Of a DNA stretch of 64,000 bases, positions 52,373-64,000 are shown in pieces. The notes under the pieces were generated by a model. The model was not told the DNA's origin. It saw nothing but the letters and a program-made list of their open reading frames with translations, and made no database searches. Position numbers and translations under genes: made by a program. This stretch comes from Candidatus Eremiobacteria bacterium (GTDB taxonomy: Bacteria; Vulcanimicrobiota; Vulcanimicrobiia; Vulcanimicrobiales; Vulcanimicrobiaceae): positions 256,001-320,000 of the forward strand of contig CAVTRC010000002.1 of the NCBI GenBank assembly GCA_963737065.1, read 5' to 3'. Each line of letters begins with the position of its first letter. Position 1 is the stretch's first letter.

Positions 52373-52864
52373 CTATACGATGCCGGCACGCAACGCGTGA
52401 ACTGCAACTTGCGTGCGCGCTGTGAGATGCAATTTCGCGAGGATGTGCGAGACGTGATTCTTCACCGTTTTGTCCGACAGCTGCAATCGCATGCTGATTT
52501 GTTTATTCGAAAGACCTTCGGCGACGAGGCGGACCACTTGGAGTTCTCGTTCGGATAAGAGAGACCGCCAATCCGTTCCGCTTGGAACGGGCTGAAGATG
52601 TCGTGACGGCGCGGACGGCATTGCAGCCAGCGACTTTACCGTCGCGATGAAGTCTGCGATCGGGACGTCGTGCAGCACATCGAGCAACGACTGATCGATA
52701 ACGACGTGGGCGGCCGGGTGATCGGAGTCATTCGTTGCGGACGTGCCGACGACCGCGATGCCGGGATCGAGCTGAAGCAGTCGCGCGATCGCGGTGCGAA
52801 CAGCAGAATCAGCACCCACTATAAACGCTGACGTGACGTCAGCTTGGGATGATGCAAGGGACAT
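52373..52864 (-). CDS. LuxR/NarL-type regulator with truncated, degenerate receiver domain
   Basis: LSERELQVVRLVAEGLSNKQI...TVKNHVSHILAKL; N-terminal REC remnant. Confidence 0.9.
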   Translation of the reverse strand: MSLASSQADVTSAFIVGADSAVRTAIARLLQLDPGIAVVGTSATNDSDHPAAHVVIDQSLLDVLHDVPIADFIATVKSLAAMPSAPSRHLQPVPSGTDWRSLLSERELQVVRLVAEGLSNKQISMRLQLSDKTVKNHVSHILAKLHLTARTQVAVHALRAGIV

Positions 52865-52923
52865 GGTTGCCTTTCCGTGGCTCGGCTGGCGCCAGCATAA
52901 TACGACGTCCGGCTTTCTCGGGA

Positions 52924-52962
52924 CTTACGGACTAATTACAGCGCCATTACAAACCGATTACA
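52924..52962. promoter_or_regulatory. Phased direct repeats with 11-bp period
   Basis: CTTACG 52924, ATTACA 52935, 52946, 52957. Confidence 0.7.
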
Positions 52963-52967
52963 CTGGT

Positions 52968-55743
52968 ATGGTGCCCGCTGCGACCGTCGACCGGGTGCGA
53001 CTGCGTAGCCGCTTGGAGCGGTTGCGGCCGGCTATTGTCGTGCTTGCAGCGCCCGCCGGCTACGGGAAAACTGCGCTGATTCGGTCGCTCTACGGGGCCG
53101 ATCCCGACGCGCGGATCTGCGATTGTGACGGATTACGCGACGAGCTCGACCTCGCGCGGCGGCTGATGCCGGAAATCGACGCTGAGCTGAGCGACGGCGG
53201 CCGAACGATCGCGGAACGCGTGTCGCTCGCGCTCGACTTCCTTTCGCTACACGCGCCCGGCCGAATGATCTTCGACCGCGCGCGCTTCATCGGGCGGCAT
53301 CCCGAGGCGCTGAAGTTTTTTACGCAGATATTGGAGCGCCGCTCGGCCGGAACGACGATCGTCATCTCGGCACGCGACGCCGTTCCGTTGCGGCTGACGC
53401 GCTACGCCGCCCCGCACGAGATCATCGTGCTCCGCGCCGCCGATCTCGCCTTCGATCGCGACGAGCAGCGCGCGCTCTTTGCCCCTTACGTGACGGAAAA
53501 CGCCGCGCTGGAACGCATCGCTGAAGTTTCCGAAGGGTGGCCGATCGCGGTGTTCTTGCTGCAGCGTTTCGCGCGTGAAGGAAGGCTCGACGAACTTCTA
53601 CATCGCTTGGATGACGTCGCGTTCGACGAACTGCGCGATTATCTCGTCGACGAAGTGTTTTCGCTCTACGATTCGCCGGCGTTGTTCGCTTTGTTTGCAT
53701 GCGCCGCGATGCCGCACGCTACCGACGCCGATGTTCGCGATGCGTTTCCCGAATGCGTTGAACGGAACCGCACTCGCCGAGTTTGCCAGGGAGTCGCCGT
53801 TCCTCCGGCGCGACGCGGAAGGGCGCTATCGCGTGCATCCGCTCGCCGCGGCCGCGGTCTTGGCGCATCAGCACGAGCGGCAACGTCTGCTCGTGGCGCA
53901 ACTCGCACGTGCGCGTGAAGGCGACGGCGATTATCTTCGAGCGGCCGAATTATACGTCGCGAATCGTGATTTCGACGCAGCGGCGAGAGCGCTTGCGCGC
54001 TACGACGTTTTGCCGATGGCGCGCCCGCCGCAGCGATATCTCGATCTGCTGAACGGGTTTACACCCTCACAGCTCATCCGCTATCCGCAGCTTTTTGGCG
54101 TTCACGCGCTGATGCGGCTCTTTCGCGATTCGCCGCAAGCACTTCTCGACGAAGCGGAGTCGCTCTGGCGAACGATACCGCGGGCGGCGTTGCCGCGCGA
54201 GCGTTATGCGCTCTTGGTGCTTCGCATGCAGTTGCTCGCATATCTCGGTGAACACGCGCGCGCTTGCGAGCAACTGCAAGAGGCAATCGGTGGCGCATCC
54301 GGTACGAGTCTAGAGACGTCACTTCTGCCGATGCGCGCCTTCGTTCGCGCGCGTTGCGGTGAGCTCAGCGCTGCGACCGGCGACATCGACCGTTCGTTGC
54401 CCGCGATCATGGAAGCCGATGGGATGGCAGCCTGCTTGTATGTGACGATGGCGGAAGTCGCGCGCATACGCGGCGATCGCACGGAAGTGCAATTTCTCCA
54501 AAGCGCGCTCGTACGTGCACGCGAATCGGGTTTCGCAAACCTGCCGGCATTGGTGCTCGCGCAGATCCTGGTTGGCGCGTGGCTCTGCGGAGACGACGAG
54601 CGAGCGCGCGGCGCAGCCGAAGAGCTCGGTCGATCAATCGCAGGCGGCGTTTGCGCTTTTACGTACGTCAGCGGGACGATGCTCCAACGCGACGTCGCTC
54701 CGTCGCCGCGCGATCTGCCGGAATTCGTAATTTACGGAAACCTCATCGAGCTCGTCGATACGCTCGACGAACGGCGGCGGCTGGAACTTGCGCGTGCAGC
54801 CTTCGAACGTGCCGAGCGCCTCGGTCATGCGTTTCTCTCCGTCCTTACTTGCGTGGCACTTGCGCTCGTGGATGAAGCGAATTTTGCGGAGCACGCCGCA
54901 TGCGCGGCGGAGTGTGCAGCATCAATCGACTCGGACGCATTACGAAGCGCCGTTTCGCGCCTCGTCGAGCGAAAACTGGATTGCGGCATGCTATCGGCGT
55001 TCGTCGCGCGCCTCACTCGGGGGGAAAGCGTCATTGCGCCGCTCGACGTCTCGCTCGCGAGCGGGCGCGTTCGCGTCGATGGTGTGCCGGTCGCAATTGC
55101 GCGCCGCGAGCTTGAACTTTTGCTCGCAATTGCGAGCAAACGAGAACCATCGTCGCGCGCCCGGATCGCATCGCTGCTCTGGCCTGATCTGGACGATACT
55201 GCGGCGCGCAACGTTTTTAGCGTCTGTCTTCATCGCTTGCGCGCGCGTCTGCCGCGGCGTGACGCGATCGAACGCGACGGCGACGGATATCGGCTGCATG
55301 CCCATGCGTTCGTCGATCTGTGGGAGGTCGACCGCGCGTTGCGCACTGCGCGAAAGAAAGCGCCGCTCGATGAGCGAGACCGCGCGCATCTCGAGCGCAT
55401 ATGGTCGGTCGTGAACGACGGCGGCTCGCTTTGCGGCGAGGAGTGGGAATGGTTTGAGCCGATCGCGCACCGTCTGCACGAGGCGCGCGTCGAGCTTGCG
55501 CAGATCCTTGGAGACGATGCGCTCGCGCGCGAAGATGCCGTGACGGCACTGCAGTATTCGAAAGCGGCACTCCACGCCGATCGTTGCGACGAACGCGCGG
55601 TCGAAATCGGCATTCGCGCGCACCTAATAGACGGCGATCGTGCGGCCGCGATGCGCCTCTTCCGGCAATACCGCAGCGCGCTCGCCGCTGAACTCGGCGC
55701 TGAGCCGTCGTCATTGCTTTCCGCGCTGGTAAAAAGCGCATGA
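52968..55743 (+). pseudogene. MalT-like ATPase-TPR-wHTH-BTAD (SARP-type) regulator, split by frameshift near 53750
   Basis: APAGYGKT, SEGWP, YRVHPL, RELELL..LWPD..RLRARL wHTH, VDL..DE.A..ELGAEPS BTAD; removing one C from TTTCCCG joins the frames. Confidence 0.85.
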
Positions 55744-56420: not shown

Positions 56421-59400
56421 TCCGTTCTCCGGCTTAACGTGGCGCAATGCCGGCCCGGCTGTTTCCGGCGGCCGTCTTGGCGCGGTCGCGGGAACCGATC
56501 GAGATGCGTCTTTGTATTACGCGGGCGCGGCCGGCGGGGGCGTATGGAAGTCGACCAATGCCGGCGCGACGTGGACGAGCGTCTTCGACGGTCAGGACGT
56601 GCAGTCGATCGGCGCGATTACAATCGATCCGGTCGAAAAAGAGACGGTCTGGGTCGGCACGGGAGAGTCCAATCCGCGCAACGATGTGACGCAAGGCGAC
56701 GGCATCTATAAAACAATCGATGGCGCAAAAACGTGGACGCGCGTATTGATGCTTCACAACTCGCTCGTGAGCCGCATCGTGGTCGACCCGCGTAACACCG
56801 CGCACGTGGTCGCCGCCGTACTCGGCGATCCGTTTGCGAACAGCGAGGACCGCGGTATCTACGTGACGACCGACGGCGGCGCGACCTGGAAGAAAACGTT
56901 ATACGCCGGTCCTTCAACGGGCGCGTCCGACCTCGTGGCGGATCCGAAAAACGCGAGCGTGCTTTTCGCCGGTATGTGGCAGTATCGCCGTACCGGCTGG
57001 AGCTCCGATAGCGGCGGTCCGCAGGACGGATTGTTCGAATCTACCGACGGCGGCGAAACGTGGACGAAGCTTCACGGCAACGGGTTGCCAAACGAAACGA
57101 TGGGCAAGATCGGTCTCGCGATCGCGCCGTCGAATCCGCAGCGTATCTACGCGCTGATCGAAACGAAGCACGGATTGCTCTGGCGTTCCGACGATGGCGG
57201 AGCAACGTGGCAAGCGACGACCGCGGACCCGCTCATCGACGAGCGTCCGTTCTATTACAGCAAAATTTTCGTCGATCCGGCCAACGCCGATCGCGTGTGG
57301 ACTGAGAACGTGCACATGACCGTCAGCGTCGACGCGGGCAAGCACTTTACGATTACGGGACGAGGCGTGCACGGCGATCACCACGGCATGTGGATCGCGA
57401 ACGACGGGCGGCGGATTATCGAAGCGAACGACGGCGGCGTAGCGTTCTCGCGCGATGGTGGCGCAACGTGGCAATGGGAAAAGAACTTACCGGTTTCGCA
57501 GCCGTATCACATCGGTTTTTCCCGCGAATCGCCATATCGCATTTGTCTCGGATTGCAAGATAACGGAATGTGGTGCGGTCCGTCCAATCCCCTCAATCCC
57601 GCCGGCATCAGTTCGAGTCAATGGATGCGAACCGGCGGCGGGGACGGCACGTGGACGCTCTTCGATCCTCGCGATCCGCGGTATGTATGGCAAACGGCGG
57701 GCGGCGGTAATTTTGCGGGGGCGCTTTCAATTCACGACTTCACGACCTCGGAAACGAGAGAGGTCGGCCCATACGTGCGCGACCAGAACGTGATCGATCC
57801 GAAAGCAATGCGTTATCGCTTCAATTGGGAAACACCGATCGCGTTCGATCCGTTCGACCGTAGCCGCGCGTACACCGCGGGCAATGTGCTCTTCACGAGC
57901 AGCGATCGCGGCATGACATGGTCGCGCATCAGCCCCGACCTCACGCGCAACGATCCGTCACATGAAGTCGTCACCGGCGGAATCACGCTCGACGGAACGG
58001 GCGCCGAAACGAGCGACACGATTCTCTTCATCGAGCCCTCGCGCGCCGCGCGCGGCGAACTCTGGATCGGAACCGACGACGGCCTCGTGCAACTGAGCCG
58101 AGACGGCGGCAAGCATTGGAAAAACGTCACGCCGGCGGGCATCGCGCCTTTCGGACGTTTCGCTTCGATCTCCGCGTCGTCGACCGACTCCGCGACCGCG
58201 TACGCCGTCTATGACTTGCACATGACGGGCGACCGCCGTCCGTACGTATTCGTCACGCATGACTACGGCGGACATTGGACCGGTATCGCAGACGGTCTGC
58301 CGAGCGATGACGAAGCGCGCGCGATTCTCGCCGACCCTCGCGTTGCGCACGTGTTGTATCTCGGCCTCGAGCGTTCGTTGTGGGCGTCGTGGGACGACGG
58401 CGCGAGCTGGCAACGGATCTCGAGCAATCTTCCCGCGCTCTCGATGCGCGACATCGAGCTGCAACCCGACCGTAACGATCTGCTTGTTGCGACACACGGT
58501 CGCGGCGCGTGGATCCTCGACGACGCCGCCGCGCTGCAACACTATGCACAAGCGCGTCGTGCTGACGTCTATCTCGTGGCGCCGCGCGACGCGATCGAGT
58601 GGAATCGCTTCTCGTATTGGGGAACGCGCACGGACGGAGCGGGTCCGGAATACGGAGCGATCATCACTTATTACATGAGATCAGCGGCATCCAACGCCCC
58701 GACGGCCGAGGTCATCGACGAGCATGGAGCAGTCGTACGGCGCTTCACGACGCACGAAGAAGCCGGCAAAGAAGTTGGGGATCTGAGCAATGACCCGGGG
58801 TTCAACCGCTTTGCGTGGGATTTAACGAGCGAAGACGTGCATCCGTGGACGTACGCGCCGCAATGGAACCGCACAACGTTCGCGGGCGGTGCACCCGTCG
58901 TACCCGGGCGCTATACCGTGCGGATTCACGTCGACGGACGAACGTACGCGCGCGCCTTCGTCGTGCGGCAAGATCCCCGCACGCACTACACGATCGCGCA
59001 ATTGAAGGAACGGCGTGCACGCGTACAGGGACTGCTCGGCGATCTTTCGCGTGTCGACGACGCGCTCAATACGCTTGGCGCCGTGGCGGCAAACGGACCG
59101 TCGCGTGTCGCAGCCTTGAACGCCTCGGGTAATACACGTCTCGCGCGCAGCATCGACGCACTTGTGCAGCAGACGCCCGCGCTGATCGCGTCGTTCACGT
59201 CCAATCCGAAAAACGATCAGGACAACGACTTTTTGCCCGACGTCCTGCGCGAACGGCTGCAAACGCAAATCGACACATACTTCGATTCGCTTGCGCCCGC
59301 GACCGCGGAACAACGCCGCGAAGACGCGATCCTGCACCGCCTGACGCAAACGCAGCTCGCCGCATTCGCGCCGTTTGCCGTGACCGTCCGAAATGCCGAT

Positions 59401-59445
59401 GCGCAGCTGCGCGCGGCGAAGATGCAGCCGTTGGATGGACGCTAA
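56338..59445 (+). CDS. Secreted BNR/Asp-box (VPS10-like) beta-propeller glycosyl hydrolase-like protein
   Basis: Signal peptide; many S/T-x-D-G-G-x-T-W repeats; WRNAGPAVSGGR, ATHGRG. Confidence 0.9.
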   Translation: MRQLPLALTALVASLALIPCRAHASAADPFSGLTWRNAGPAVSGGRLGAVAGTDRDASLYYAGAAGGGVWKSTNAGATWTSVFDGQDVQSIGAITIDPVEKETVWVGTGESNPRNDVTQGDGIYKTIDGAKTWTRVLMLHNSLVSRIVVDPRNTAHVVAAVLGDPFANSEDRGIYVTTDGGATWKKTLYAGPSTGASDLVADPKNASVLFAGMWQYRRTGWSSDSGGPQDGLFESTDGGETWTKLHGNGLPNETMGKIGLAIAPSNPQRIYALIETKHGLLWRSDDGGATWQATTADPLIDERPFYYSKIFVDPANADRVWTENVHMTVSVDAGKHFTITGRGVHGDHHGMWIANDGRRIIEANDGGVAFSRDGGATWQWEKNLPVSQPYHIGFSRESPYRICLGLQDNGMWCGPSNPLNPAGISSSQWMRTGGGDGTWTLFDPRDPRYVWQTAGGGNFAGALSIHDFTTSETREVGPYVRDQNVIDPKAMRYRFNWETPIAFDPFDRSRAYTAGNVLFTSSDRGMTWSRISPDLTRNDPSHEVVTGGITLDGTGAETSDTILFIEPSRAARGELWIGTDDGLVQLSRDGGKHWKNVTPAGIAPFGRFASISASSTDSATAYAVYDLHMTGDRRPYVFVTHDYGGHWTGIADGLPSDDEARAILADPRVAHVLYLGLERSLWASWDDGASWQRISSNLPALSMRDIELQPDRNDLLVATHGRGAWILDDAAALQHYAQARRADVYLVAPRDAIEWNRFSYWGTRTDGAGPEYGAIITYYMRSAASNAPTAEVIDEHGAVVRRFTTHEEAGKEVGDLSNDPGFNRFAWDLTSEDVHPWTYAPQWNRTTFAGGAPVVPGRYTVRIHVDGRTYARAFVVRQDPRTHYTIAQLKERRARVQGLLGDLSRVDDALNTLGAVAANGPSRVAALNASGNTRLARSIDALVQQTPALIASFTSNPKNDQDNDFLPDVLRERLQTQIDTYFDSLAPATAEQRREDAILHRLTQTQLAAFAPFAVTVRNADAQLRAAKMQPLDGR

Positions 59446-59456
59446 GCACGGTCGCG

Positions 59457-59624
59457 ATGGCAAGGCTGCTCGTCAAATATTCCGGCTACCGGCGAGCGGC
59501 TATTTTCGCGGCCGAGAACGCGCTGTTGGACGGGAAAGTGCGCTTGCTCTATCTAGAGGAGGACTGTATCGGTTACTATGAGGGCGAGGATGAGTATCCA
59601 GCGGCGTTCGAAGGGCTCACGTAG
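59457..59624 (+). CDS. Possible 55-aa protein upstream of MalT-like regulator
   Basis: ATG ORF filling the gap; its TAG overlaps the AGGAG RBS of the next gene; no RBS of its own. Confidence 0.3.
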   Translation: MARLLVKYSGYRRAAIFAAENALLDGKVRLLYLEEDCIGYYEGEDEYPAAFEGLT

Positions 59625-59630
59625 GAGCCA

Positions 59631-62291
59631 ATGATCCGACCGGTTCGCCCCGACGGTACGATCGAGACCGGCGGAGTGTTCGTACCGATCCAACGGCGGC
59701 GCGTGCTCGACCGTATTGCGTCTGCTGCAATGCAGCGCGTCGTCCTCATCGTCGCACCCGCGGGTTACGGCAAATCCGTCGCATTACGCCAGTTCTTAGA
59801 GCGAGTCGACGGCCCGTACGTTCGCTTCGACGTTCTCTCCGACAACGGTGGATTGCTCGGATTCCTGCGCGGCCTTTCCGATGCGCTTGTCGAGGTCGCG
59901 CCCGATGCGCGCGCGACGCTGGCCGGTGCATATGAAAAGAACGCGGCGTCCGCATCGCCGGGAGCCGATCTCGCGCTGTGGATGCATTCGCATTTGAAGT
60001 CGTATCGCGGCGTGATCGCGATCGACGATCTCCACGTCGCGCAGGACGATCGCGAAGTCACGCGATTCCTCGCATCGCTCATCGACCGGACGAAGGGACG
60101 GGTCCAGTGGGTCATTGCGTCGCGGTCGACGCTCGGACTTCCGATCGGCACGTGGCTTGCCTATGGTGACAGCGATCTGGCAATCGACGAGCATGATCTC
60201 AAGTTTTCGGTGGAAGAAGCCCGCGATGCCGCGCGCGCGTTTCGCCTCGCCGTTCGCGACGAAGAACTCTACGAACTGTTAAATCTTACCGACGGCTGGG
60301 CCACCGCGATGACGTTTGCATTGCGTTCAACCACGCGTTCGGTCGAGCTGCGTAACATCTCGTCGATGACGCGCGACATGGTCTACCGGTATCTCGCAGA
60401 GCAGGTCTACGAGACGCTTAACGACGAGGAATGCCGTTTCATCGAAACCGCGGCGCTGCTAGGCGAGATCGACGTGGACGCTATGGTCGGCGCCGGTTTC
60501 GATCGCGCGTCCGCGATGCTCGATAATTTGCGCCAACGTGTCGCGTTCATTCACGAAGGCGAGCCGGGCCACTACCGCCTCCACGACCTTTTCCGCGAAT
60601 TTGCGCTTCACCAACTGAACCTTCGCGGCAAAGACGTCGTCCTCGAGTATGCCGCGTCGATCGCGCAATCGCTCGAAAAGAAAGCTGACTGGGTCGGGGC
60701 GGTTCGGCTCTACACCGAAGCGCGCGATGCTTCCGCGCTAACGCATCACCTCGAAAAGCAGGGCCTCGACCTCGTTTCGCGCGGCCACGCGGATGACGTC
60801 GAGCGCGCACTCCACGTTATTGAAGAAGCCGGGCAGAGTTCAACGCCCGTGTTTGCGATGCTTCGCGGGACGATTGCCGTCGCGCGCGGGCGGTACGCCG
60901 AAGGCGAGTCGCTTTTACGTTCGTCGGTCGGACGTCTCGAAGATCCCGTCGTGCGCGCGGATGCGGCGACTCGGCTCGCGCTCTTAATGTTCAACCGGCA
61001 CGATGACGTCTCCGAGGTGCTCAACGGGATTTTGTCGGATTCGCGTCTCGATCACTGCCGGCAGCTCGAAGCTCGAGCGATCGTGGCGGCGTGGTATGCG
61101 CATGCTTCGCGCGAGGCGGAAGCGCGGAGCGAGATCAACATCATCGAACGCGAAATCGAGGGTTTGACCGACCAGTCGTCGCTCGCGCGAGTCACGCAAC
61201 GGCTTGGATTCGCCTACATGCGCGTCGGCGACATTACGAAAGCCACGCAACGCCTAAAAGTTGCAGTCGAAATTGCGACCGCACGCGGTATGTGGAGCTT
61301 GGCGGCACGTGCCTACCTATTGCTTTCGGCGATCGCATTTTTGAACGAGAACCAGTCGACGCTGAGTCTGTGGAACGCGCAACAAGCAGCCCTCGCTGCC
61401 GGGCGCGCCGGCGACTATCTTGACTTACAATCATCGCTGCTCACGATCCTTAGTATCGAAAATCGGCGCGGTAATGCGGAACGCGCGCAGCAGGTCGAAC
61501 GGCAATTGGCGGAACTTGGTTCGGCCGATTCGTCGCGCGTACATTACATCACATCGAGCCAGGCGCATCGGCACGCGTGGAACGGACGATACGCGGACGC
61601 GCACCGGCTCTTCGGCAGCGTTCTCGGACGACAAGCGTATGAGGCGGACCGCGTCCTGATTCATTCGCTGTACGCCCTCTCGCTCGCGCTCGACGGACAA
61701 GCGCGTGAAAGCGCCGATGCGGCCACGACTGCCATCGACGTCATTGACCGGACAAGCGACACCGCCGCGTACGGCGAGCTGGTCGTCGAGGTGTCGCGGT
61801 TGTTCGTTATCGCGGCCGAGGTCGCGAGCGGCCGGCTCACCGCGGCGACGCGCCTGCTGAAGAAGCCGCCGCGTTCCGATCACGACATTGCGCGCTGCAT
61901 GCACACGATCGTCGAGGACCTTCTGCGCATCGCCAGGAGCTCGTCGTACGAACCTGAAGAGTTCTCTGCCCGCCTCGAGACCGTACGGGACTTCGGCCTC
62001 GGCGGCTACGCGAAATACTTTGCCCTGGTGCGCGATCATGTTGAATTTCGGCACGACCACCGTGCCGAGATGGAGATCGCTCTCACACCGTCAGAGCTGC
62101 GCATTCTCCGTGCGTTAGCCGCCGGAATGTCTCCGAAGGAAATCGCGGCCGATATGGGGCGGTCGGTCTACACAATCCAGACACATATCCAGAACTTGAT
62201 TGAGAAACTAGGCTGCCACGGTAGAGCAGAAGCGATTGCGGCGGCCCGGAAGCGAGGGTTTCTAGTGGCCGGAGGTAACGGCTCTACTTAA
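59631..62291 (+). CDS. MalT-like STAND ATPase-TPR-LuxR transcriptional regulator
   Basis: APAGYGKS, IDDLH, TDGW, YRLHDLFREF, helical repeats, LTPSELRILRALAAGMSPKEIA HTH. Confidence 0.93.
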   Translation: MIRPVRPDGTIETGGVFVPIQRRRVLDRIASAAMQRVVLIVAPAGYGKSVALRQFLERVDGPYVRFDVLSDNGGLLGFLRGLSDALVEVAPDARATLAGAYEKNAASASPGADLALWMHSHLKSYRGVIAIDDLHVAQDDREVTRFLASLIDRTKGRVQWVIASRSTLGLPIGTWLAYGDSDLAIDEHDLKFSVEEARDAARAFRLAVRDEELYELLNLTDGWATAMTFALRSTTRSVELRNISSMTRDMVYRYLAEQVYETLNDEECRFIETAALLGEIDVDAMVGAGFDRASAMLDNLRQRVAFIHEGEPGHYRLHDLFREFALHQLNLRGKDVVLEYAASIAQSLEKKADWVGAVRLYTEARDASALTHHLEKQGLDLVSRGHADDVERALHVIEEAGQSSTPVFAMLRGTIAVARGRYAEGESLLRSSVGRLEDPVVRADAATRLALLMFNRHDDVSEVLNGILSDSRLDHCRQLEARAIVAAWYAHASREAEARSEINIIEREIEGLTDQSSLARVTQRLGFAYMRVGDITKATQRLKVAVEIATARGMWSLAARAYLLLSAIAFLNENQSTLSLWNAQQAALAAGRAGDYLDLQSSLLTILSIENRRGNAERAQQVERQLAELGSADSSRVHYITSSQAHRHAWNGRYADAHRLFGSVLGRQAYEADRVLIHSLYALSLALDGQARESADAATTAIDVIDRTSDTAAYGELVVEVSRLFVIAAEVASGRLTAATRLLKKPPRSDHDIARCMHTIVEDLLRIARSSSYEPEEFSARLETVRDFGLGGYAKYFALVRDHVEFRHDHRAEMEIALTPSELRILRALAAGMSPKEIAADMGRSVYTIQTHIQNLIEKLGCHGRAEAIAAARKRGFLVAGGNGST

Positions 62292-62304
62292 ATTTCAGTA
62301 GAGC
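62281..62304. promoter_or_regulatory. Palindrome, candidate LuxR-type activator box
   Basis: GCTCTACT-N8-AGTAGAGC; TATTGT -10-like hexamer at 62324-62329. Confidence 0.6.
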
Positions 62305-62361
62305 GTCCGCGCTCGTCACCCCGTATTGTGAAGATAGTCACTTGTCCTGAGGGGGTTTACT

Positions 62362-62451
62362 TTGATCACCGCTGCTGTTCTCGTTGTCGCGCTCGTCTCC
62401 GCCGCCGCCATCGCGCACTGTGAATTTCCTCCCGGCACCATCGGCCACTAG
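62362..62451 (+). CDS. 29-aa putative exported signalling peptide MITAAVLVVALVSAAAIAHCEFPPGTIGH
   Basis: GAGGGGG RBS 6 nt before TTG; hydrophobic core, AIA site, short Cys/Pro/Gly tail; below ORF-track cutoff. Confidence 0.75.
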   Translation: MITAAVLVVALVSAAAIAHCEFPPGTIGH

Positions 62452-62476
62452 TTCGAACCGCTAAGGCTTTCCAGAA

Positions 62477-63460
62477 ATGCCCGCCGCTCGCACGCTAACC
62501 TCCCTTGGGGCATCGCTTGGCCAAGAGGTCCCTGCGCTTGCCGCTAATGCGGTGAAGCAGCTGACCCTCGCCGCGACGACCAGCGAGCCGGACATTGAAA
62601 AGTCGCTCGAACTGTTGCTGGATCGTCTCTGTCTTTCGCTGACGCTCGCCAAACCGGTGGGGCTTGCCGCTTGGGCTGAGCGCGAGGCGCTCAAGTTCGG
62701 CCGAGCCGGCGTTATGGATCTTACCATTGCGGCCACCCATACGCTTTGCACCGCAGCGTTGGCCTACGAGGCCGACCAGCGGCGGGTGTTGGCGTTTCTC
62801 GATGTCCTCGCTCATGAAATCGAGCGGACCGCGCTCGGCGTCGACACGGCCGAATCGGAATTCTCCGGCCTCGACACGACCGATGCGCTCTTGGCCATGC
62901 TCGGCGAGCGCGACTACGGCACGTGCTGCCATTCGAAGGCGACGGCGGAGTGGGCGCGCCGGCTCGCAACCGCGATGGGGTGCGATGCGGAGACGACGGA
63001 GTTCGTCGAACTCTGTGCGCTGCTTCACGACATCGGAAAGATCTCGACGCCGGACGGCGTGCTTTTGAAAGAAGGACCCCTTACCGCAAGCGAGTGGGAC
63101 GTCATGCGCGATCATGCGGCGGCAGGCTCGCGGATTCTCCATCAGATCCCGTCGCTGCAGCGCTGTTCCGTCGTCGTACGCGCGCACCACGAGCGCTATG
63201 ACGGCGGCGGATACCCGGACGGGCTCACCGGCACGAGTATCCCGTTCGAAGCCCGCGTCGTCGCGGTGGCCGACGCGTTTCACGCCATGATCAGCGAGCG
63301 TCCGTACCGGCGCCCGATTCCCCCGCGACAGGCACTCCAGATTTTACAAGAAGGCCGCGGTTCTCAATGGGATCCCGAGGTAGTCGACGCGATGATCGGC
63401 ATGTTCAGCCGTCGCCCGTTGACCGCCGCCCAAGAACATGCGCACCTTTCCTCAGCGTAG
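62477..63460 (+). CDS. HD-GYP cyclic dinucleotide phosphodiesterase with N-terminal helical domain
   Basis: HS, LHDIGK, HHERYDGGGYPDGL, RVVAVADAFHAM, RPYR. Confidence 0.94.
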   Translation: MPAARTLTSLGASLGQEVPALAANAVKQLTLAATTSEPDIEKSLELLLDRLCLSLTLAKPVGLAAWAEREALKFGRAGVMDLTIAATHTLCTAALAYEADQRRVLAFLDVLAHEIERTALGVDTAESEFSGLDTTDALLAMLGERDYGTCCHSKATAEWARRLATAMGCDAETTEFVELCALLHDIGKISTPDGVLLKEGPLTASEWDVMRDHAAAGSRILHQIPSLQRCSVVVRAHHERYDGGGYPDGLTGTSIPFEARVVAVADAFHAMISERPYRRPIPPRQALQILQEGRGSQWDPEVVDAMIGMFSRRPLTAAQEHAHLSSA

Positions 63461-63499
63461 CGTCCACGCCGAGGAAAGCCCCGCTATCGGGTGGTGGGC

Positions 63500-63531
63500 A
63501 GAGGCGCCGTTTCACGGCGCCTCTTTAATTT
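63500..63531 (+). terminator. Intrinsic terminator after HD-GYP gene
   Basis: AGAGGCGCCGT-TTC-ACGGCGCCTCT then TTAATTT. Confidence 0.8.
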
Positions 63532-63571
63532 ATGCCATGCAGTTGGCACTGACGCGTGCGAGACTGGGGCC

Positions 63572-64000
63572 ATGAACGACTACGTCATAGGTGCCGGTGC
63601 GGTGCTTACCGCCGGTGCCTCCGCAACGATCGCTGGAGCGACGCTTCACATGCAGGTCGATGCGACGCTCGCGCGCACCGTGCAGGCCGCGCTCGTGGAC
63701 TTCGAATCGTCCGGCAAAGCTGAGCTGACCAAAGTCGTGGTCGTCGCCTGCGGATGGAACCCGCGCCGCGTCCAGCATGATCTCGTCGCGCCCCTGCTGG
63801 CACGCGGCGAATGTACGTTGACCGACGTGCTGATCGCGCTCGCACACGCGGCGGGAAGGAGCGAGGTGCATGTGTTTGCGCAGTGGCTCATCGACGACAT
63901 GATGAGTGCGTCAGCGGCGAAATCGGGCGTTACGCTGGTATCGCATCCGCTAGAGTCCGTTCGACAGGCCGCCCTGATCTCTGGTCAGACGTTTTCCCGA
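63572..64000 (+). CDS. Hypothetical protein (3'-truncated by window edge)
   Basis: ATG 63572 (MNDYVIGAGAV...) open to the end of the window with GC-rich third positions. Confidence 0.7.
   Translation, partial: MNDYVIGAGAVLTAGASATIAGATLHMQVDATLARTVQAALVDFESSGKAELTKVVVVACGWNPRRVQHDLVAPLLARGECTLTDVLIALAHAAGRSEVHVFAQWLIDDMMSASAAKSGVTLVSHPLESVRQAALISGQTFSR

Follow-up and report, generated by a model that had tools for sequence, protein, structure and literature searches.

Within a 64,000-nucleotide (nt) stretch of a Candidatus Eremiobacteria genome (hereafter the window), we characterised a cassette at positions 59631-63531, entirely on the plus strand, in which the gene of a MalT-like member of the large ATP-binding regulators of the LuxR family (LAL) is followed by a palindromic box, a short open reading frame (sORF) encoding 29 residues and the gene of an HD-GYP enzyme. 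The regulator and the enzyme are both of already known kinds; what is new is the family of micro-peptides, along with its operator and the way it is obligatorily paired with a regulator of the STAND type (ATPases for signal transduction that carry numerous domains). The reading that we prefer, tentatively and with somewhat less than even confidence, is that the cassette would be a regulator-activated operon in which the peptide serves as the cognate signal of the tetratricopeptide-repeat (TPR) sensor of the regulator and the HD-GYP enzyme as the output, a reading built on comparative sequence analysis. Gene order, box, -10 element, Shine-Dalgarno (SD) sequence and small ORF are kept across more than 20 genera. 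The features of the cassette and of its immediate flanks are located as follows:

59457..59624, plus strand: remnant of an ABM-domain gene, a 55-residue ORF whose residues 18-55 match the C-terminus of a conserved 110-residue protein
59631..62291, plus strand: LAL regulator gene, 886 residues, with Pfam AAA_22/AAA_16 matches in its N-terminal part and GerE at 818-870
62281-62304, no strand: 24-bp palindrome with 11 of 12 positions paired, containing the 18-bp dyad core
62284..62301, no strand: 18-bp dyad CTACTTAAATTTCAGTAG, core of the palindrome and presumed binding site of the regulator
62324..62329, plus strand: -10-like hexamer TATTGT, 22 nt past the dyad
62349..62355, plus strand: SD sequence GAGGGGG, 6 nt ahead of the TTG start
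62362..62451, plus strand: micro-ORF of 29 residues with a TTG start, an apolar N-terminal run and a Pro-Pro tail
62477..63460, plus strand: HD-GYP gene, 327 residues, starting 25 nt past the sORF stop (HD_5 E 2.8e-39; motif HHERYDGGGYP)
63500..63534, plus strand: intrinsic terminator at the operon end, with a stem at 63500-63524 (11 bp, 8 of them GC pairs) and a T-rich tail
63572..64000, plus strand: start of the gene of a 151-residue protein, a neighbour probably outside the module, of which only the start lies in the window and which continues to G000:C2:320024

An earlier note on this DNA had described the palindrome, the -10-like hexamer, the ribosome-binding site, the 29-residue ORF, the HD-GYP gene 25 nt further on and the terminator, and all of these were found where it had put them, with one correction: the palindrome, said there to follow the regulator gene, instead overlaps its TAA stop codon (62289-62291). 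The HD-GYP gene is intact, as described there.

We compared the cassette across 53 unique loci of Eremiobacterota (Vulcanimicrobiaceae-type metagenome-assembled genomes, MAGs; L001-L030 and L032-L055, leaving out L031 and L044 as duplicates of L003 and L005). The record titles of the closest loci are those of Eremiobacterota or Vulcanimicrobiota MAGs (Baltobacteraceae, Aquilonibacter, Tyrphobacter), and a few are labelled otherwise. The synteny and small-ORF search around orthologues, which the earlier note had put forward as a check on its proposal, was run and showed a similar short hydrophobic ORF (20-42 residues) at the same place in 39 of the 53 loci. Four further loci (L024, L025, L029, L030) carry a lipoprotein-like ORF of 44-59 residues whose N-region is positive and which has a lipobox and a C-terminal Pro-Pro end of similar kind; two (L019, L037) keep the start and the tail of the sORF split over two frames, one (L020) has a nonsense mutation at codon 3, two (L017, L028) lack a comparable ORF, and five were not assessable because of contig ends, a truncated regulator or paralogues. 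In L020 (genome G012) the whole module has decayed, with five stops in the regulator gene, the stop in the sORF and a truncated HD-GYP gene. When the most hydrophobic ORF of 18-60 residues was picked automatically at each locus, its hydropathy was at least 2.0, the threshold used, in 40 of 47 loci, against 0.8% of random 230-nt stretches of the window genome, from which the chance rate was taken.

The sORFs share a design: M-[LIV]-T comes first, then some 15 apolar residues, and last a tail of about seven residues with Pro-Pro and a terminal Gly. Among 32 aligned members, Met1 is present in all, residue 2 is Leu, Ile or Val in 28 and residue 3 is Thr in 28, while counted from the C-terminus 21 members have Pro at -5 and 18 have it at -6, and the last residue is Gly in 20. 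Codon position 2 is the least variable (0.36, vs 0.59 and 0.57 at the others). The 33 short members have a median length of 22 residues, with an apolar run of 15 and a tail of 7, and their 768 residues include no Lys or Arg and 19 Asp or Glu. An SD-like 4-mer lies at -18 to -4 in 34 of 37 sORFs, against 11% of random 15-mers, and in two of the three exceptions (L011, L052) the -10 element is followed after 6 nt by ATG, a leaderless arrangement. Judged by this retention of ORF, frame, SD and peptide traits while the nucleotides diverge, the sORF is genuinely coding. The peptides match no family in Pfam or NCBIfam, where entericidin B came up weakly for one member (E 0.029), and a whole-genome pattern scan returned the window sORF as the only convincing member. 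The window peptide lacks the lipoprotein signature of a positive N-region plus a lipobox ending in Cys: Lys and Arg are absent from it, and the residue ahead of its Cys is His. Just 8 of the 33 short members have Cys at the junction, and the signature is found only in the four lipoprotein-like versions.

Allowing up to 3 mismatches, the 18-bp dyad has no second copy in the window, where 0 would be expected. Upstream of HD-GYP, 38 of 46 loci have the pattern CTA-N12-TAG, whose expected number per 330 nt is 0.007; its half-sites vary symmetrically from lineage to lineage, and TAnnnT follows at 22-23 nt past the box in 37 of the 38 box-bearing loci. If transcription starts about 7 nt past the hexamer, the dyad is centred at about -43 and its right arm spans the -35 position. 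A generic sigma-70 scan of 59300-64000 returned no site with a complete -35/-10 promoter, which fits an activator-dependent promoter, and a box that is centred about 43 nt upstream of where transcription likely starts, in a promoter without a -35, fits activation by the adjacent LuxR-type regulator. The peptide and HD-GYP unit activated by the regulator, as the earlier note had it, is in agreement with this position of the box; on the other side, only the -10 of its promoter is visible, and no full promoter. That the regulator binds the dyad and activates the promoter is predicted from this layout with high confidence. A search of 62200-62560 against Rfam gave no match at E up to 1, c-di-GMP (cyclic di-GMP) riboswitches included. 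The strict form of the box has three matches genome-wide, one of the other two being an operator-like palindrome at a BlaI-type repressor gene, and so rare a site points to a regulator that appears, from genome scanning, to have a single local target. The operator-like palindrome (G000:C2:472470) lies just upstream of the BlaI/MecI-type repressor gene, which is followed by a gene of 642 codons, and is probably that repressor's own operator.

The regulator was examined with a profile built from 37 orthologues and searched against the PDB. Residues 19-415 matched MalT (8bob, E 7.6e-27); the archaeal TPR sensor PH0952 also matched (E 1.9e-16), as did TPR proteins over about 410-630, among them the LGN/Pins TPRs at 470-630 and RapF at 412-600 (E 3.4e-5), and the helix-turn-helix (HTH) chains of GerE, NarL and VraR at 807-876. 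Consistently with the latter, PF00196 identifies a LuxR-type HTH at 818-870 (E 4e-13). The Walker A motif of the nucleotide-binding oligomerisation domain (NOD; APAGYGKS in the window) is invariant among the 37 orthologues as A42-P-A-G-x-G-K48, and D132-D133 are nearly so. The protein thus combines the hallmarks of a LAL, namely a NOD ATPase with Walker A and B, a helical-repeat sensor and a C-terminal LuxR/GerE HTH. MalT proper was considered and rejected: the score was 141.5 bits against an NCBIfam cut-off of 537, with the alignment limited to residues 20-444, and a score so far under the cut-off makes the regulator a MalT-like LAL and not MalT itself. The sensor is its fastest-evolving part (p-distance 0.66, vs 0.36 for the NOD), with terminal branches about three times longer. 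Orthologues were found in 35 of 61 related genomes. Broken down by family, they occur in 30 of 36 genomes of the window's own family, in 4 of 5 of the sister family and in 0 of 19 of another, third family of the same class. These tallies take in unpublished genomes; G025, G027 and G035, named below, are likewise unpublished. A paralogue of about 32% identity at G000:C1:458135-460687, and likewise in L026 and L027, is followed by the gene of a 400-423-residue lipoprotein with a lipobox, 8 nt past the regulator paralogue in G000; this regulator-lipoprotein pairing may be an older arrangement.

The model of the HD-GYP enzyme had a pLDDT (predicted local distance difference test) of 89.8, and its top Foldseek matches were 4mcw, 4r8z and 9rbz (E about 1e-9). 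Both the HD-GYP fold and the HD and HHExxDGxxGYP motifs are present, and the motif residues H152, H184-D185, H213, H237-H238 and D266 are invariant or nearly so. The all-helical, lineage-specific domain made up of residues 1 to about 125 evolves fast (p-distance 0.57); full-length relatives were found in Eremiobacterota records only, with other phyla matching about 133-312 only, and an atlas look-up of this domain returned sub-threshold leads only (best 0.86; an RsbRD_N cluster at 0.84). Eleven GGDEF matches in the genome indicate that c-di-GMP signalling is present. Nearly all orthologues end in Ser-Ser-Ala past a variable linker (63446-63457 in the window), an ending that could be a C-terminal recognition or degradation tag. 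Outside the window, a weakly related STAND-like gene at G000:C2:434330-437444 is followed by a paralogous HD-GYP gene (43% identity in the catalytic domain), and no hydrophobic small ORF was found at that place; the same pairing occurs in G035 and G027.

In 23 of 30 loci from relatives, and in all 25 loci reached via HD-GYP, the LAL gene has HD-GYP after it on the same strand, with a gap of 3-56 nt between sORF and HD-GYP. L014 (G035) and L016 (G027) have no HD-GYP gene; what they retain is the regulator, at 39% and 37% identity, a variant of the box, TAnnnT at 22 or 23 nt, a strong SD, an sORF of 21 or 24 residues that belongs to the family and a terminator-like hairpin. The window enzyme used as query found no orthologous HD-GYP elsewhere in G035 and G027 and matched only the catalytic domain of the paralogue, beside another STAND gene. 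Regulator, box and peptide therefore persist without HD-GYP and make up the minimal conserved unit. In L029 and L030, of the sister family, the HD-GYP homologues lack the HD motif, and that of L030 the GYP as well; the regulator and the box are kept, and both loci retain a lipoprotein-like gene of 49-51 codons. One subclade (L003, L032, L034, L035, L038, L039, L042) has, in the gap from sORF to HD-GYP start, a terminator-like hairpin with a T-run, which would mean more peptide than enzyme transcript; in the window this hairpin is weak or absent (-1.2 kcal/mol). An attenuator was considered as a general feature of the cassette and set aside, hairpin and T-run being restricted to that subclade.

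The operon reading with a peptide signal, which in outline is the autoinduction loop that the earlier note proposed and which is supported in part, would run as follows. A LAL dimer would sit on the 18-bp dyad about 43 nt upstream of the start, at a promoter with a -10 and no -35, and would switch on a short operon with the micro-peptide (20-29 residues) first and HD-GYP as second cistron. The apolar part of the peptide would act as a signal or anchor, leaving the N-terminus in the cytoplasm and the acidic, Pro-rich tail outside the cytoplasmic membrane, and the tail would be freed after a small-x-small junction. The placement of the tail outside is suggested by the signal-peptide and lipobox versions and by the absence of positive charges; this insertion, outward tail and release together we put at about even chances. 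The fast-evolving TPR sensor would then recognise the tail and close a positive loop, with HD-GYP as the cargo that lowers c-di-GMP, a step that we advance tentatively and consider possible at rather less than even chances. By analogy, an intracellular route may also apply, in which the unexported peptide is sensed directly; intracellular signalling of this type is reported for XIP of Streptococcus mutans (PMC10617681).

Several points weigh against this reading. Tail distances show no correlation with those of any regulator domain (r -0.12 to 0.12); for the sensor the correlation is r 0.12, with a weak partial r of 0.32-0.36 and saturated tail distances, and tail types track the NOD tree and the sensor tree alike, as under vertical descent, with no incongruence. 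HTH residue 851 covaries with box position 4 (C on both halves in 22 of 23 loci with Thr, in 0 of 6 with Ala or Gly), which suggests a link that amounts to 1-2 independent contrasts on the tree. As RNA, the palindrome can in addition form a hairpin where the regulator mRNA ends (-13 kcal/mol, z -2.2, no T-run), although the fixed spacing from box to -10 favours a promoter element. The peptide has no positively charged N-region and is too short for co-translational targeting. No transporter, peptidase or permease gene conserved in the cassette was found. A look-up of sequencing runs gave no RNA run, and one DNA run with a share of just 0.05. In the sole member of the phylum in culture, the wall is of the Gram-negative type and includes an outer membrane (PMC9758169); in such a diderm phylum, re-import would have to cross two membranes. 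Among the loci, the lack of HD-GYP probably goes back to a single event, and the two MAGs that show it are related and incomplete (75% and 90% complete). Finally, an ABM-domain gene (110 residues, PF03992 E 1e-7 to 1e-10) lies 6-50 nt upstream of the regulator in most relatives, and its product could make or modify a small-molecule ligand instead.

This last point also bears on the strongest alternative, which we consider unlikely though deserving of weight: the peptide would be a regulator-controlled membrane micro-protein, or an exported peptide, acting on another target (a sensor kinase, a periplasmic protein or another cell), and the regulator would sense a different ligand, for instance a small molecule tied to the ABM-domain protein that adjoins it. 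The hydrophobic single-segment design of the peptide is in line with such a role, although at a median of 15 residues the apolar run is short for a stable transmembrane helix. In the window the ABM gene is truncated while the remainder is intact; only about its last 38 codons survive, so that it is dispensable here. A candidate target stands downstream: past the terminator follow the 151-residue protein, an OmpR-type response regulator, a HAMP histidine kinase and a TonB-dependent receptor, kept in all Vulcanimicrobiaceae-type loci tested, and the periplasmic part of the kinase is its most variable (0.51, vs 0.21-0.30). However, the kinase occurs in 61 of 61 relatives, whether or not they carry the cassette, and lies on other contigs in G027 and G035; no response regulator or histidine kinase was found in a further 5.4 kb downstream in G027. 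The 151-residue protein gene and the response regulator-kinase pair occur without the cassette in G025; in two other genomes the 151-residue protein gene lies beside regulator and sORF. Since the kinase and the 151-residue protein gene occur without the cassette, they are neighbours and not parts of it.

A closer partnership between peptide and enzyme, in which the peptide would anchor HD-GYP to the membrane or modulate its N-terminal domain, is improbable. It draws on the tight linkage of the two genes, within the 3-56 nt noted above, and on the fast-evolving, lineage-specific N-domain; against it, the sORF persists with intact SD and frame where HD-GYP is missing (G035, G027), the lipoprotein-like versions put the tail outside while the enzyme has neither signal nor membrane segment, and the sister-family enzymes have lost catalytic motifs where the peptide gene is kept.

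The HD-GYP-less loci likewise weaken the idea that the sORF is a cis-acting leader whose Pro-Pro-slowed translation sets read-through into, or translation of, HD-GYP, the peptide itself being functionless. The conserved Pro-Pro 5-6 codons ahead of the stop, the hairpin of the one subclade and a distance of 3-10 nt between sORF stop and HD-GYP start in six loci speak for such a leader. Hydrophobicity and M-[LIV]-T are nevertheless kept over the whole peptide, the hairpin is missing in many loci, the window included, no Rfam family matches, and the sORF is retained without any HD-GYP downstream, which makes a leader quite improbable. That the sORF is untranslated and its conservation that of a DNA or RNA element is highly implausible: an exact look-up found 8 of 10 sORFs absent from a collection of 15 billion proteins, but ORF, frame, SD and peptide traits outlast nucleotide divergence, and two loci have leaderless starts.

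We next set the cassette, under the preferred reading of a peptide-sensing LAL, beside known systems. With MalT and other LALs the regulator shares the NOD ATPase with Walker A and B, the arm, the helical-repeat sensor and the C-terminal LuxR-type HTH. MalT boxes are asymmetric, whereas the box here is a palindromic 18-bp dyad and the target is a pair of micro-peptide and HD-GYP genes, not sugar genes. In MalT, inducer binding to the sensor switches the NOD and permits multimerisation (PMC4381067). No description of a LAL with a peptide ligand, or of this cassette, was found in open-access papers and preprints. The closest parallel in logic is Rgg/SHP of the RRNPP(A) family, where a small gene for a hydrophobic pro-peptide also lies beside a cytoplasmic TPR-type regulator, with a box in the peptide promoter that would make for a positive loop. 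SHP (short hydrophobic peptide) precursors mature during export and are re-imported by an oligopeptide permease (PMC10617681; PMC10075063; PMC9765709). The adjacent small ORF expected of that family is conserved here, its secretion being suggested by the apolar run and the lipoprotein-like versions. The receptor, in contrast, is a STAND ATPase with a C-terminal LuxR HTH in place of the N-terminal XRE-type HTH and TPRs of RRNPP(A), which places it outside that family; the phylum is diderm, the peptide N-terminus is without positive residues, linked genes for an exporter, protease or permease are lacking, and sensing is proposed by analogy.

In the DSF (diffusible signal factor)-RpfC/RpfG system of Xanthomonas the signal is a fatty acid, and the HD-GYP enzyme is activated through phosphorylation of its receiver domain and lowers c-di-GMP. 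The proposed cassette resembles it in coupling a cell-cell signal to a c-di-GMP-lowering HD-GYP, and differs in that the enzyme would be under transcriptional control and has a helical N-terminal domain. The lux box of LuxR is a 20-bp dyad centred near -42.5, in class II activation; the dyad here is of similar size and position in place of a -35, with a LuxR-type HTH predicted to bind it, whereas the part with which the regulator senses has no relation to the acyl-homoserine-lactone-binding domain. Small membrane proteins and lipoproteins such as MgrB, SafA and the entericidins are comparable in size, in having a single apolar segment and a dedicated regulator and, for the distant versions of our peptide, in a lipobox; they differ in that our peptides give no significant family match, are mostly without Cys and combine a short apolar run with a conserved Pro-Pro tail.

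LAL regulators are very common, with a ligand known for just a handful, and peptide signalling via cytoplasmic receptors is regarded as a Firmicutes speciality. In more than 20 genera of a soil phylum with hardly any cultured members, a LAL is here tied to a micro-peptide gene that is conserved and fast-diversifying, with HD-GYP as the usual cargo. Even the cautious reading gives an unannotated micro-protein family, a defined operator and a testable single-target regulon. If the peptide is the ligand, LAL regulators would gain their first peptide ligand, peptide quorum sensing would reach diderm bacteria and STAND receptors, and the cassette would offer a compact three-part switch that could be rebuilt in a laboratory host. 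A peptide autoinducer with a STAND/MalT-type receptor in a diderm phylum, whose tail on the TPR sensor would switch the ATPase and so induce the peptide gene along with HD-GYP, would thereby be a new receptor class outside Firmicutes, a conclusion that we regard as doubtful at this stage.

Around the cassette, the 151-residue protein has 190 homologues, all unnamed as proteins and of constant length with a Gly/Ala-rich N-terminus, the named records being those of Aquilonibacter and Baltobacteraceae; Pfam gave no match and an atlas look-up was sub-threshold only. The genes that follow it (L111 690-6274, G000:C2:320090-325674) encode the OmpR-type response regulator, the HAMP kinase and a 1144-residue TonB-dependent receptor with a CarboxypepD_reg domain; the response regulator is 79-95% identical across genera, far above the conservation of the cassette. 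TonB-dependent receptors are encoded in the window neighbourhood. Upstream, at 52794-55743 of the window, two overlapping ORFs in different frames, the first with AAA_22/AAA_16 and the second of 722 residues ending in BTAD, may correspond to the other peptide module of the earlier note and may represent a frameshifted or mis-started regulator of the SARP/STAND type.

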